From a virus, in UHGV virus genome UHGV-0364842: a stretch of DNA of 28,424 nt. One strand, 5' to 3'. The translations under genes were made by a program, and so were the position numbers. Shown here piece after piece: positions 8,618 to 28,424 of the stretch. The notes under the pieces are model-generated. The model ran no database searches, was not told the DNA's origin, and saw only the letters and a list, made by a program, of their open reading frames with translations. Each line of letters opens with the position of its first letter. The first letter of the stretch is position 1.

Positions 8618-8680
8618 GTCGTTAATTCCTATGCGTGGTTTTACGATATCGAAGCCCTGACTGTTCCCGCAGTTGGGGCT

Positions 8681-8863
8681 TCACTGTTTTATGTTCACAT
8701 CTAACATTGTTTTTCTAGAATTTAACTCTTTCCCCATCGCTTCAACGCAAAGAGATACACAACCACTACAGATAAATATCTCTGCTTTAGCGCGAATCAA
8801 CATTGCACATTCATGCTGAGGCTTTCCGCAGAAGGAGCACTTAAAGCCATCTTCTTTATTCAT
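8681..8863 (-). CDS. ClpX N-terminal zinc-binding-domain-like mini-protein
   Basis: 60 aa; CSFCGKPQHE...LI...FICSGCVSLC matches the ClpX N-domain signature (CSFCGKSQHEV...YICDECVDLC in E. coli ClpX, from memory). Start overlaps the arc stop. Confidence 0.6.
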   Translation of the reverse strand: MNKEDGFKCSFCGKPQHECAMLIRAKAEIFICSGCVSLCVEAMGKELNSRKTMLDVNIKQ

Positions 8864-25349: not shown

Positions 25350-25592
25350 TCATGCTCCGGTAGTGAACAGGTCTAACGCTTCCTTCGATTTACGCACCGC
25401 TTCGATAGTGCGGGTCGTGATATCTGAATTAGCGCCACCTGACTGGAAGTGAATTTTGAATAGCTCAAGCTTCAGCTCGTCAGTGCCAATGAATTGAAAT
25501 GCTTCTTCTGCGGCTGCGTTCTGGTTCATGACCAGTTTGTAAATCTCTAACTGGAATTTCTGTTCTTCAGTCATGGGAATAATCTCTGCCAT
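25350..25592 (-). CDS. hypothetical protein (80 aa) upstream of the terminase genes
   Basis: ATG preceded by an ACGGAG RBS; in the position of the small ORF that precedes gene 3 in P22-like phages (from memory). Confidence 0.5.
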   Translation of the reverse strand: MAEIIPMTEEQKFQLEIYKLVMNQNAAAEEAFQFIGTDELKLELFKIHFQSGGANSDITTRTIEAVRKSKEALDLFTTGA

Positions 25593-25738
25593 TATTGGCT
25601 CCGTTTATCCGTTAAAAGGGATATCAGTTAAGTTATCCCGTGTAGGGTATAAGCCATTATCAAAGCCACTCTGTAGGGAATGGCTTTTGTGATGGCAATA
25701 AAAAAGGCCGACTTAGCGACCAATTTAATAATTAATTA

Positions 25739-25981
25739 TCAATAATGTGGGAATTGGTTACTATTTTGCAAGATAACCCAAGATGGGCGAAACAAGTCAA
25801 AAACATTGATGCTTAACAGGGCTTCATTTATTGATTTTTTTTCATCCGCAGAAACTCCGCGTCCTGCATTTGACATTACAAGCTGACCATTAACTATTTC
25901 ACTACATTGTTTTACATAACTACCTGGCGGCATTGATTGAAAGTTACATGTACCATTTATTATTTTATCAATTTCACTCAT
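25739..25981 (-). CDS. hypothetical AT-rich small protein (moron candidate)
   Basis: 80-aa ORF with a GAGGT RBS; AT-rich; no recognisable domain. Confidence 0.4.
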   Translation of the reverse strand: MSEIDKIINGTCNFQSMPPGSYVKQCSEIVNGQLVMSNAGRGVSADEKKSINEALLSINVFDLFRPSWVILQNSNQFPHY

Positions 25982-26220
25982 ATCAACCTCGTCTAGTTGT
26001 TCGTCATAGATTCAGTGGCTGGCGGTGACGATTCCGCTTTTCGGGAGCTACCCTAGCCACTGTTTTATTCTATCCGATGTCTTTCCATCAGTCCGCCACC
26101 ACAAAGAATCTTTTTTGCCATAAGGCAGGGGGTTCATCTTTCAGTGGCTGCCAGTGTTATTTCCCCACTTACTGGCTTGGGTTGTTTCGTGGTACTGCTG
26201 TTAATTAGTGAGTCCGGGGA

Positions 26221-26706
26221 TTATTTCAGTTCGTTACCAGGCATTTCTTTTAGCTCTTTCAAATGACAACGATTGAGACTAAACCACTCCCCGTGCGACC
26301 TATAGTTGTAATATTTTTGGTGCAATTTGGTTTCAAGCTCTCTATCGGCCGGAATCTTTGCAATTAGATTTAGCTTCCCACCACTCATGCGAGATATCTC
26401 TGAAATTCGTTTATTAACCCTGCGACTAAACCCTATTTTTGTTAGCCCACTATCTTCAGCATGCAGAACGTACACATATGATTTTTGCGAAGCACTGGGT
26501 GCGACTTTGTTGTAATTAATCATGTCAAACATGAAGCCTTGCTTTAGCAAAGTTTCAAAAAAGATAGAATTAACACACCCATTCCTTCTCAGCTCTGCAC
26601 TTAGCTTGTCAATTTCCTCTATGATGTCGCCAGACCCCTTTCCACTTATAAGAAAATCTTGGTACATGCGACCAATTCTTGAGGTAATTTCAACAAAGTT
26701 ATTCAT
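26221..26706 (-). CDS. T5orf172 / GIY-YIG-like domain protein
   Basis: 161 aa; C-terminal half YVYVLHAEDSGLTKIGFSRRVNKRISEI...HGEWF fits the GIY-YIG/T5orf172 pattern; N-terminal ~65 aa unassigned; AT-rich. Confidence 0.6.
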   Translation of the reverse strand: MNNFVEITSRIGRMYQDFLISGKGSGDIIEEIDKLSAELRRNGCVNSIFFETLLKQGFMFDMINYNKVAPSASQKSYVYVLHAEDSGLTKIGFSRRVNKRISEISRMSGGKLNLIAKIPADRELETKLHQKYYNYRSHGEWFSLNRCHLKELKEMPGNELK

Positions 26707-26846
26707 AGCGTTTACCTTTTAGAAAGTGAGCCTGTCTCACAGAAAAGCCGCCCGAGAGAGGTCGCCACCTATAACGGCTTTTCTCAGGCTCGCTTACTGA
26801 AAGGCTCTCGTTAATATGCGCGTGAGATGCGCTGTGAAATTCAGAT

Positions 26847-26873
26847 ATAAAAAAGCCCCGCAAATGCGAGGCT
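26847..26873 (-). terminator. rho-independent terminator, minus strand
   Basis: Minus strand reads AGCCTCGC-attt-GCGGGGCT followed by TTTTTTATA: an 8-bp stem including one G-U pair. Confidence 0.55.
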
Positions 26874-27047
26874 AAATCCTGGTATTTGTAATGAACTGGC
26901 TCTTATCTCAACGCAGCCCCTTACTGCGCGCCAGATGCTCAATATCAAGCATCAGCAATGAGATGTTTAATCTGGATTCACTCCAGAAGTGATCATCACC
27001 CTGTCTATAGAGCCAGATGTGAAGGATGATGAGTAAAATTATCGCTA

Positions 27048-27515
27048 TCATCGAAGGCATTGCGTCTTGATATATTCCTGAAGCGTTCTCAGTGCTGTTT
27101 GGTCGCGGATAATTCCGTCCCGGACACCGAGAACGTTTCGTCCAGCAACTGGAGAGAGTTCGACGGTGGCATCATTGCCCATGCCGGAGGCGCCGGAGGT
27201 TTCGGCTGAGGATGGCACAGGGCATTTTCCTTTGACGAGCACCCTGCCACCATTATCAAGATTGCGCCGAAGAGCATCATTTTCAGCTTTCGCATCAGCT
27301 AACTCCTTCGTGTATTTAGCATCGAGTGCATCAGCAGCACGCTGGCGTTGCTGCATGTCAGTAATGGTGGAGGTCGCCTGCTTCAGCTCAATGACTTTTT
27401 TATCACGCTGTTCTTTGTAGGCGATGGCGTTATCACGGTAATGATTAACAGCCCATGACAGGCAGACGATGATGCAGATAACCAGAGCGGAGATAATCGC
27501 GGTTACTCTGCTCAT
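27048..27515 (-). CDS. Rz: i-spanin Rz
   Basis: N-terminus [31 protein letters not shown] matches lambda Rz from memory; the C-terminal part diverges. Confidence 0.85.
27089..27295 (-). CDS. Rz1: o-spanin Rz1, embedded in Rz in an alternate frame
   Basis: Lipoprotein signal with a VAGC lipobox, then a proline-rich segment ([11 protein letters not shown]); fully nested within Rz. Confidence 0.7.
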
Positions 27516-27988
27516 ACCTCAATCTCTCTGACCGTTCCGCCTGCTTCTTTGAATTTTGCAATCAGGCTGTCAGCCTTATGCTCGAACTGACCATAACCAG
27601 CACCCGGCAGTGAAGCCCAGATATTGCTGCAACGGTCGATTGCCTGACGGATATCACCGCGATCAATCATCGGTAAAGCGCCACGCTCCTTAATCTGCTG
27701 CAGCGCAACAGCGTCCTGGCTTTTGGGAGAGAAGTCTTTCAGGCCAAGCTGCTTGCGGTAGGCATCCCACCAACGGGAAAGAAGCTGGTAACGTCCGGCT
27801 GCTGTTGATTTGAGTTTGGGGTTTAGCGTGACAAGTTTGCGAGGGTGATCGGAGTAATCAGTGAATAGCTCTCCGCCAACAATGACGTCATAACCATGAT
27901 TTCTGGTTTTCTGACGTCCGTTATCAGTTCCCTCTGACCACGCCAGCATATCGAGGAACGCCTTACGTTGATTATTGATTTCCACCAT
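27512..27988 (-). CDS. R: endolysin, lambda R-type lytic transglycosylase
   Basis: 158 aa; essentially identical to the recalled lambda R sequence ([35 protein letters not shown]...). Confidence 0.9.
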
Positions 27989-28295
27989 CTTCTACTCCGG
28001 CTTTTTTAGCAGCGAAGCGTTTGATAAGCGAACCAATCGAGTCAGTACCGATGTAGCCGATGAACACGCTCGTTATATAAGCGAGATTGCTACTTAGTCC
28101 GGCAAAGTCGAGAAGGTCACGAATGAACCAGGCGATAATGGCGCACATCGTTGCGTCGATTACTGTTTTTGTAAACGCACCGCCATTATATCTGCCGCGA
28201 AGGTACGCCATTGCAAACGCAAGGATTGCCCCGATGCCTTGTTCCTTTGCCGCGAGAATGGCGGCTAACAGGTCATGTTTTTCTGGCATCTTCAT
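27972..28295 (-). CDS. S: holin, lambda S-type (S107/S105 dual start)
   Basis: 107 aa; near-identical to recalled lambda S, including the MKM dual-start motif. Confidence 0.9.
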
Positions 28296-28424
28296 GTCTT
28301 ACCCCCAATAAGGGGATTTGCTCTATTTAATTAGGAATAAGGTCGATTACTGATAGAACAAATCCAGGCTACTGTGTTTAGTAATCAGATTTGTTCGTGA
28401 CCGATATGCACGGGCAAAACGGCA
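28296..28424 (-). promoter_or_regulatory. lambda-type late-operon leader upstream of S (promoter itself probably beyond the window)
   Basis: The reverse complement matches the recalled lambda sequence immediately upstream of S, including the AAGACATGAAGATG S-start region. Confidence 0.4.

Follow-up and report, generated by a model that had tools for sequence, protein, structure and literature searches.

A conserved cis-acting leader RNA of about 120 nt is encoded on the minus strand of the virus genome UHGV-0364842 (26832-26715), and a central hairpin forms its core. The window is the whole stretch of 28,424 nt that was analysed. The element follows immediately on the lysis-cassette terminator, and its 3' end reaches the Shine-Dalgarno (SD) sequence and AUG of a T5orf172 gene. 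Every helix and both pseudoknots covary, and the structure is far beyond chance. The element is independent of T5orf172: the same leader stands before Rha, KilA-N, Bro-N, ANT and HNH-AP2 genes. The leader RNA probably gates translation of the first accessory gene after lysis by keeping the SD paired.

The list of open reading frames identifies the minus strand of the window as a lambdoid or P22-like late region, and a sar RNA at 8619-8685, recovered in an Rfam scan of the window, confirms the P22-like background. From Rz and Rz1 onwards, the minus strand carries an ORF of 50 aa, the terminator, the leader element, a gene of 161 aa and two small genes, followed by the genes for the small and large terminase subunits. 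According to the terminator scan, the lysis-cassette terminator consists of an 8-bp stem with six G-C pairs, a loop of 4 and the tail TTTTTATATC. The 161-aa ORF scores 50.1 bits for the Pfam domain MUG113 (cut-off 22.3) and 39.2 bits for T5orf172 (cut-off 20). A copy of the int-alpA RNA motif (RF02996) lies on the minus strand at 26001-26063, 650 nt downstream of the element. A scan of the window sequence found no promoter-like site inside the leader. Because the element directly follows the lysis-gene terminator, late transcription under Q antitermination, or else read-through, would be its main source. The arrangement recurs among homologs, with a terminator-like hairpin and T-run 5-25 nt before the first hairpin of the element (P0) in 72 of 91 distinct contexts and a terminator-like hairpin within about 60 nt of P0 in 77 of 91. 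The features of the locus and of the leader RNA, ordered 5' to 3' along the transcribed strand, are as follows.

28295-27972, minus strand: holin
27988-27512, minus strand: lysozyme
27515-27048, minus strand: Rz and Rz1
26844-26873, minus strand: intrinsic terminator of the lysis cassette (stem 26873-26854, then T-run), directly upstream of the leader element
26818-26832, minus strand: P0 hairpin, GCGC-AUCUCAC-GCGC, its stem 99.5% paired
26827-26822, minus strand: P0 loop UCUCAC, the strand of kiss K that pairs with the bulge
26811-26817, minus strand: linker AUAUUAA, variable in length (6-12 nt) and sequence in the alignments
26805-26810, minus strand: segment a, CGAGAG, 5' strand of pseudoknot A, pairing with a' in the apical loop
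26797-26804, minus strand: segment b, CCUUUCAG, the anti-SD 5' strand of the basal helix
26795-26793, minus strand: 5' strand of helix c, AAG
26791-26785, minus strand: 5' strand of helix d, GAGCCUG
26775-26784, minus strand: 5' strand of helix e, AGAAAAGCCG, the upper stem
26759-26770, minus strand: apical mini-hairpin f, AGGU-GGCG-ACCU
26753-26758, minus strand: segment a', CUCUCG, 3' strand of pseudoknot A inside the 24-nt loop
26741-26750, minus strand: 3' strand of helix e, CGGCUUUUCU
26735-26740, minus strand: K', GUGAGA, the 6-nt bulge, pairing with the P0 loop
26715-26734, minus strand: 3' strands of helices d (CAGGCUC), c (CUU) and b (CUAAAAGG)
26719-26715, minus strand: SD, AAAGG, inside the 3' strand of b
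26704-26714, minus strand: spacer UAAACGCU and AUG (26706-26704)
26221-26706, minus strand: downstream gene of 161 aa with a T5orf172/MUG113 domain, which is cargo and lies outside the RNA family

A sequence-only reading of this locus had described the central hairpin as a stem-loop with a 6-nt bulge and a 24-nt loop, about 20 nt upstream of the start codon of the T5orf172-like gene, and suggested a regulatory role. The sequence is exactly as it had described. On the plus strand, AGCCTG (26729-26734), TCTCAC (26735-26740) and AGAAAAGCCG (26741-26750) are followed by the 24-nt loop (26751-26774), CGGCTTTTCT (26775-26784) and CAGGCT (26785-26790), and the foot of the hairpin lies 22 nt from the ATG at 26706-26704. 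Folding of the minus-strand leader, which the same reading had proposed as a check, gives -32.4 kcal/mol for the 71-nt RNA compared to -22.0 +/- 3.2 for dinucleotide shuffles (z = -3.3), and none of 200 shuffles folds as well. In a context of 211 nt, the stem reaches down to 26712-26808, where CCUUU base-pairs to AAAGG in the ribosome-binding site. The element spans 26715-26832, about twice the size first described, and includes an upstream hairpin and two pseudoknot-type pairings. The bulge and the loop are positioned as reported, but these terms mislead, since the bases of the bulge and of the loop's 3' half are engaged in covarying long-range helices. The perfect 10-bp upper stem of the window is an exception, with one or two mismatches found in most homologs.

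A simple stand-alone stem-loop, for example a leftover terminator or a protein-binding hairpin, might be read into the isolated hairpin, which folds about as well on the plus strand as on the minus strand and whose 3' arm has a GC clamp followed by UUUU. Such a reading is barely conceivable, given that bulge, loop and flanks covary with distant partners. The terminator scan moreover lists the upstream terminator (26873-26854) and omits the central hairpin, with its loop of 24 nt, compared to 3-8 nt in intrinsic terminators, and with GUGAGA in place of a U-tract after the stem.

Homologs of the leader are widespread among phages and prophages of Enterobacterales. A BLAST search with 26700-26850 retrieved 154 phage records with 80-98% identity over the 150 bp from terminator to ATG, including HK620, phi80, HK106, epsilon34, g341c, CUS-3, Sf101 and Stx1a and Stx2a converting phages, as well as phages of Klebsiella, Enterobacter, Pantoea and Hafnia. 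Homology of the leader is bounded by the ATG on one side and by the lysis-cassette terminator on the other. A degenerate pattern search added 120 IMG/VR loci and, in contigs of one genome per species, about 35 true prophage copies, with about 18 chance matches in GC-rich non-enteric genomes discarded. The prophage hosts include Pantoea, Rouxiella, Rahnella, Providencia, Buttiauxella, Trabulsiella, Klebsiella, Enterobacter, Raoultella and Brenneria, among others. Altogether, phages, IMG/VR contigs and prophages provide about 100 distinct copies from more than 15 genera of Enterobacterales. The covariance model R1 further revealed second, more divergent copies in eight loci, each before another gene. 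The element is present in 946 of 5426 complete E. coli genomes (about 17%), including within Stx phages and phi80. No annotation lies under the 30 E. coli matches listed, save for one partial match. Some phage records have small CDSs annotated over the element, and one leader of phage Dewey is interrupted by an HNH cassette. A protein-coding reading of the element was considered for the 54-aa ORF with a TTG start (26699-26863, minus strand) and for an overlapping ORF on the plus strand. This reading was rejected because alleles carry single-nucleotide indels at several places and because substitutions are pairwise compensatory.

The nested helices are strongly supported by conservation and covariation. 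When 93 distinct copies are aligned with MAFFT, pairing over the full structure reaches 88.3% of cells compared to 38-52% with the partners slid, 25 pairs have changed on both sides, and none of 500 shuffles reaches any of these measures. A covariance-model alignment of 101 copies, which leans towards its own model, has 94.5% of cells paired, with double-sided changes in 30 of its 35 pairs. RNAalifold independently predicted the same helices from the covariance-model alignment, with compensatory changes in 25 of 29 pairs. The basal helix is 96.5% paired, and all 10 pairs of b and c have changed on both sides. The P0 stem changes from GCGC/GCGC to GUGC/GCAC and GCGU/ACGC. In helix e, positions 5-6 form a U.U or C.U mismatch in most homologs and are restored to U-A or C-G in others. 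The closing pair of mini-hairpin f is A-U in 61 rows and U-A in 27, and its stem varies from GGU/ACC to GCU/AGC and GUC/GAC. One divergent copy (locus L018, 8513-8621) has no mini-hairpin f. The lower stem also carries coordinated 1-nt indels on both arms. Most copies were collected with a pattern fixing parts of helices d and e, and conservation of these fixed parts is therefore partly due to ascertainment. Covariation in helix d, where divergent copies pair ACCCUUG with CAAGGUU, rests on the fewer divergent copies found by the covariance model. Conservation and covariation of the stem in homologous loci, named beforehand by the sequence-only reading as the test of a regulatory structure, are thus both found, and its placement of an RNA structure in a 5' leader on the transcribed (minus) strand is supported, the structure being conserved through compensatory changes in about 100 distinct homologous copies. 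Among the nested helices, G.U outnumbers A.C by 86 to 33, including 40 U.G pairs that involve the SD's own G, and this excess supports an RNA on the transcribed minus strand.

The element might alternatively act mainly at the DNA level, as a recombination or homing linker for swaps of accessory cassettes, with the RNA structure being incidental. The leader of the window is 98% identical to HK620 or phi80 and 82% to epsilon34/g341c, whereas its flanks are 96% identical to epsilon34 and g341c, which indicates that the leader was exchanged as a unit. This exchange independently of the flanks, the sharp mosaic boundaries at the ATG and the terminator, the cassette inside the Dewey leader and cargo of homing-endonuclease type (HNH_3-AP2, T5orf172) would all suit a linker. 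Recombination homology, however, selects neither for compensatory changes nor for coordinated indels on two arms or a G.U excess on the transcribed strand, and a role mainly in DNA is highly improbable. The DNA and RNA roles are compatible, and service as a linker probably just follows from the conservation.

Two long-range pairings connect the 5' part of the leader with the central hairpin. Pseudoknot A pairs the hexamer CGAGAG (26810-26805), directly 5' of the hairpin, with CUCUCG (26758-26753). At least 5 contiguous bp are retained in 93 of 93 copies, among 16-22 distinct covarying variants such as CGAGAG:CUCUCG, CCCGAG:CUCGGG, CCAAGAG:CUCUUGG, CCCAGAG:CUCUGGG, CCAUGAG:UUCAUGG, CACAGAA:UUCUGUG, CUCAGAA:UUCUGAG and CGCAGAG:CUCUGCG. 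The kiss K joins the P0 loop UCUCAC to the bulge GUGAGA. Five or more pairs are kept by 91 of the 93 copies, in at least 14 variants, including UCUCAC:GUGAGA, UCGCA:UGCGA, UCGUAC:GUACGA, UAGCAC:GUGCUA, UCACAC:GUGUGA, CUGACAU:AUGUCAG, UUCUCC:GGAGAA and UGCCC:GGGCA. With one strand shuffled, K has P values of about 0.002-0.05 for most distinct haplotypes. The duplex energies are -6.6 kcal/mol for K and -7.3 kcal/mol for A. Column counts under-count both pairings in the MAFFT alignment. Because register shifts of 1 nt between alleles hamper column counting in the MAFFT and the covariance-model alignments, the pseudoknots were assessed with a per-sequence analysis of the best helix, combined with shuffles and contingency tables. 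The lengths of cognate and non-cognate helices discriminate only weakly, as alleles share cores.

The association of alleles provides further evidence for K. UCUCAC loops in P0 occur with a GUGAGA bulge in 34 of 34 cases and UCGCA loops with GUGCGA in 44 of 46, hence the types of P0 loop and bulge, about 90 nt apart, do not separate in these two main classes. Free recombination is seen, by contrast, between the types of P0 loop and segment a, which are separated by only about 10 nt and yield 15 recombinants. Linkage of the distant partners together with the lack of linkage between neighbors is as predicted by selection on pairing. A large clade of Stx2a phages is without half of P0, and the kiss may be dispensable there or these copies may be decaying.

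The diversity of alleles raises the question whether the element acts in trans or as a specificity determinant. P0 and segment a might then form an antisense-like module resembling c4, whose alleles would discriminate between co-resident phages or tandem copies. The element has two short covarying complementary pairs with many alleles, cargo domains of antirepressor type are present (KilA-N, ANT, Bro-N), and in all 7 two-copy loci the copies differ in the A pairing, with at least 3 differing also in K. Both partners are always found on the same RNA and within 90 nt, though, and there is no promoter or terminator to release P0 and a separately. The target sites do not overlap the SD, and neither Rfam C4 nor c4-a1b1 is matched. 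A trans antisense partner was sought within the window, with no complementary match of at least 12 nt and with 10-11-mers at chance level. Neutral compensated drift and the avoidance of mispairing between tandem copies would be equally expected to generate such allele diversity, and action in trans is quite improbable.

The fold sequesters the SD in cis. The basal helix pairs CCUUUCAG with the SD-containing CUAAAAGG, and the AUG follows 8 nt further on. In the thermodynamic ensemble, each base of the SD AAAGG is unpaired with a probability of at most 0.014, with the AUG mostly free, and about 5.2 kcal/mol would be needed to open AAAGG. In RNA thermometers of the fourU or ROSE kind, a short U-rich strand with weak pairs or mismatches holds the SD and melts at 37-42 C. 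In the element, the helix between the anti-SD CCUUUC and AAAGG has a C.A mismatch and frequent U.G pairs, but it is embedded in a large fold. The SD helix covaries, with CCUUU/AAAGG replaced by CCUA/UAGG, and 21-26 nt separate helix d from the start codon in almost every copy. As in the expression platform of a riboswitch, the SD is itself one strand of a paired and covarying helix (b). Segments K' and a' precede the SD by 13-40 nt. Among the roles initially proposed for the hairpin, translational control by a regulatory RNA is the most natural reading because the base of the hairpin sequesters the SD; the structural part of this reading holds, and we infer the step to regulation.

We suggest the following mechanism for such a gate. 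In the outermost helix b, the anti-SD CCUUUCAG holds the SD region CUAAAAGG. The P0 loop pairs with the bulge of 6-7 nt between e and d, which may thereby become a three-way junction, and the hexamer a joins the 3' half of the apical loop. Both contacts tie the 5' module to the hairpin, and two contacts of pseudoknot type would be expected to create a compact and cooperative fold. The gated gene would be the first accessory gene after the lysis cassette, encoding Rha, KilA-N, Bro-N, ANT, T5orf172 or HNH-AP2. From this arrangement we infer an effect on translation with a default state of off, where something opens the RNA. Candidates for the opening are a factor, temperature or Mg2+, processing and folding kinetics. 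As segment a abuts the anti-SD yet pairs with the apical loop, the RNA should either fold back or alternate between states. In a first geometry, which fits as a model, all helices would be present at once, the upper arm bending back to run alongside the lower one, and the P0 kiss would make the bulge a three-way junction at the hinge. The lengths of the helices are about 20 layers for b, c and d combined and about 18-20 layers for e, GG and a:a'. A second geometry also fits, in which the SD helix could close only while the 5' module is undocked, and the RNA would be a switch.

The second geometry would correspond to a true conformational sensor such as a riboswitch, an operator responding to a protein, or a sensor of temperature or Mg2+, in which a ligand, a protein or temperature shifts the balance between docking (K and A) and SD closure and so turns the gene on. 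Only 0-1 nt separate segment a from the anti-SD b, yet the partner of a in the apical loop is about 30 helix layers away, and without folding back of the arm the pairing of a and that of the anti-SD cannot coexist. The energies of K and A are similar in magnitude to the 5-10 kcal/mol needed to open the SD region, which a switch would require, and two pseudoknots within about 120 nt are typical of aptamer-like folds. The helix lengths, however, also fit the fold with all helices coexisting, and no second, mutually exclusive helix with its own covariation was found. The mini-hairpins CUUUCAGAAAG, CUUUCUAAAAG and CUGU-GCGA-ACAG were considered as a second switch state and rejected, as they are not conserved in copies of the L015 type. 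Outside the anti-SD and SD, few unpaired nucleotides are invariant in divergent copies, a small sample ascertained by pattern, and this argues against a small-molecule pocket. With almost nothing invariant outside paired regions in these copies, no conserved pocket is visible, and the cargo genes suggest no metabolite. A true sensor thus appears unlikely.

Alternatively, the element might affect processing or stability of the late transcript, as a site for RNase III, E or P or as a compact 5' structure that shields the downstream message once cleaved. Phage mRNAs are processed at such hairpins, with precedents in T7 and in the lambda N-leader, and the element is a long composite hairpin at a cistron boundary of a polycistronic late mRNA, right after a terminator hairpin. 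An RNase III site, as once suggested for the stem, is not indicated by the fold. The longest uninterrupted helices are just 10 and 7 bp and the junction strand of 6-7 nt between them pairs with P0, hence no double-stranded RNA of 20 bp would form. A processing element would also leave unexplained why the SD is a strand of a covarying helix and why the spacing to the AUG is fixed, which makes this role improbable.

The genes controlled by the putative gate are diverse. The hairpin had been taken for a device of the T5orf172 gene, but most copies precede Rha or KilA-N. Cargo proteins of 171 copies form 41 clusters. Phage_pRha with or without ORF11CD3 accounts for about 94 of the 171 copies and KilA-N with or without ORF11CD3 or P63C for about 32. 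T5orf172/MUG113 follows the element in 15 of 171, HNH_3 with or without AP2 in at least 7, and Bro-N and ANT in 2 each, with a few unknown or membrane proteins making up additional cargo. Phage records annotate the following gene as Rha, KilA-N, GIY-YIG/T5orf172 or hkbK.

The element can be filed as a new family within a known kind, the structured cis-regulatory leader. Scanning 25500-28424 against Rfam 15 with cmscan at E values up to 10 recovered only a chance mir-627 match on the element (23 bits compared to a gathering threshold of 86). A scan of the window and 15 homologous loci at gathering thresholds recovered nothing on the element. No prior description was found in the searchable full-text literature, which was queried also with literal sequences of the element and does not extend to subscription journals. 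In the T4 genes for I-TevI, seg and mob, a hairpin in the leader pairs the ribosome-binding site and read-through transcripts are poorly translated, with the block being relieved by late promoters starting inside the hairpin. The element similarly pairs the ribosome-binding site of a nuclease- or regulator-like accessory gene in a phage operon. In contrast to the T4 leaders, it contains no promoter-like site, consists of five helices and two pseudoknots, and constitutes one conserved sequence family common to unrelated cargo genes. The c4 system of P1/P7 (icd-ant) shares control of antirepressor type and two complementary pairs per transcript that covary between related phages. However, c4 is processed out and acts also in trans, and one of its targets covers the ribosome-binding site, whereas the pairings described here lie in the upper hairpin, the SD is covered by a different helix and there is no match to Rfam C4 or c4-a1b1.

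Pseudoknotted riboswitch aptamers resemble the element in having a compact fold of about 120 nt in the 5' UTR with the SD in a conserved helix. The element differs from riboswitches in having no conserved unpaired core evident in the divergent copies, no candidate ligand and no match to an Rfam riboswitch family, and its cargo consists of regulators and nucleases rather than metabolic genes or transporters. The lambda N-leader and the cIII mRNA contain RNase III-sensitive or alternative structures near the ribosome-binding site. They are likewise lambdoid leader structures next to a start site that set the rate of translation, yet they belong to the early operon, contain no pseudoknots and share no homology with the late element described here, in which features of an RNase III substrate are not evident. 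The int-alpA motif (RF02996) is also a structured RNA in leaders of regulator genes of mobile elements, but its structure and sequence are unrelated and it scores on a different segment.

The product of rha in phi80 and P22 is described as having a late-operon function and as harmful to phage growth in IHF-deficient hosts (PMC4936722). A switch RNA might be the post-transcriptional layer behind the older observation that expression of rha varies with the state of the host (IHF). More broadly, we tentatively consider it possible, though doubtful at present, that the two-pseudoknot cis-RNAs are a hitherto undescribed class of switches, as opposed to passive attenuators, responsive to a factor, ligand or condition. 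In lambdoid, P22-like and Shiga-toxin phages of the Enterobacterales, they would control late-operon genes of two sorts, the antirepressor-like (Rha, KilA-N, Bro-N, ANT) and the homing-endonuclease-like. The phi80-derived DNA of common cloning strains carries the element. If confirmed, the element would be a new structured RNA family in phi80, HK620, epsilon34, CUS-3, Sf101 and Stx1/Stx2 converting phages, and public annotations would be corrected for spurious small ORFs and for rha start codons inside the RNA. The modular and allele-specific tertiary pairings could provide orthogonal parts for synthetic translational control. Confirmation would also explain a sharply bounded and highly conserved linker of mosaic lambdoid genomes and would offer a handle on how phages restrain Rha, KilA-N, antirepressor-type and nuclease-type genes.

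Overall, window positions 26200-27060 (861 bp) are 96% identical to epsilon34 and g341c. The leader itself, the conserved structured RNA ahead of the T5orf172 gene, shows only 82% identity to these two phages (26700-26850) and 98% identity to HK620 or phi80. The leader of the window has been exchanged as an allelic patch. The interval from Rz to the terminator contains a small ORF that is conserved in many phages and corresponds to gene 62 in the g341c annotation:

26908-27060, minus strand: 50-aa hydrophobic ORF

The element is also found in E. coli genomes of DH10B-type laboratory strains (e.g., NZ_CP079736.1 at 2598288-2598409), where it presumably derives from phi80-derived DNA.

In some phages the leader occurs twice, at a distance of about 0.4-2.2 kb, with each copy preceding its own gene; the gene behind the leader is often HNH_3-AP2. 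Leader copies in two-copy loci, in the coordinates of each locus, are:

L017 (phage Dewey), 1201-1239 and 1773-1899
L139, 4844-4970
L121, 571-699
L018, 8513-8621
L035, 3249-3359
L056, 11116-11244
L167, 3505-3635

The a:a' pseudoknot pairing always differs between both copies of a genome, and the kiss, i.e., the pairing of the loop of the 5' hairpin P0 with the bulge, differs in at least three of the two-copy loci. In the Dewey genome, the leader of the KilA-N gene is interrupted by an HNH cassette that brings a leader of its own, and only the last 39 nt of the KilA-N leader are left.

Altered copies were also detected. In a large clade of Stx2a-converting phages, including similar copies in LC616xxx records, P0 has lost its 3' half through a deletion of about 12 nt; the kiss cannot form in this clade, although the bulge is kept intact. 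In Brenneria izbisi, the 5' half of the leader (P0, a and the anti-SD strand b) is exchanged for unrelated sequence, and the copy precedes a truncated T5orf172-like ORF of 61 aa. The cassette appears to be decaying or recombinant.

L011 (Stx2a phage Stx2_EH0787), 1208-1328: P0-deleted leader
L180 (Brenneria izbisi), 2279-2402: copy with exchanged 5' half

Public annotations overlap the leader RNA in L008, L012 and the following loci:

L003 (phi80), 1207-1243
L002, 1220-1390
L005, 1000-1158
L009, 1172-1339

For rha in phi80, CobraSix and Chronis, the annotated start lies 36-71 nt 5' of the conserved AUG, with the phi80 start placed at the GUG within the bulge. g341c gene 63, SPN3UB_0070 and JEP4_59 are small hypothetical CDSs that span the element. 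Both the upstream rha starts and these small CDSs are probably mis-calls.

Rfam matches identified further structured RNAs in the window:

8619-8685, plus strand: sar RNA (RF00262), strong match, 73.8 bits
26001-26063, minus strand: int-alpA RNA motif (RF02996), 42 bits (gathering score 35.8)

The sar RNA match marks a P22-type immI (ant/arc/mnt) region at its position. The int-alpA match, with an orf80-like gene immediately downstream (25981-25739), is a second structured leader within the accessory region that holds the pseudoknotted leader.
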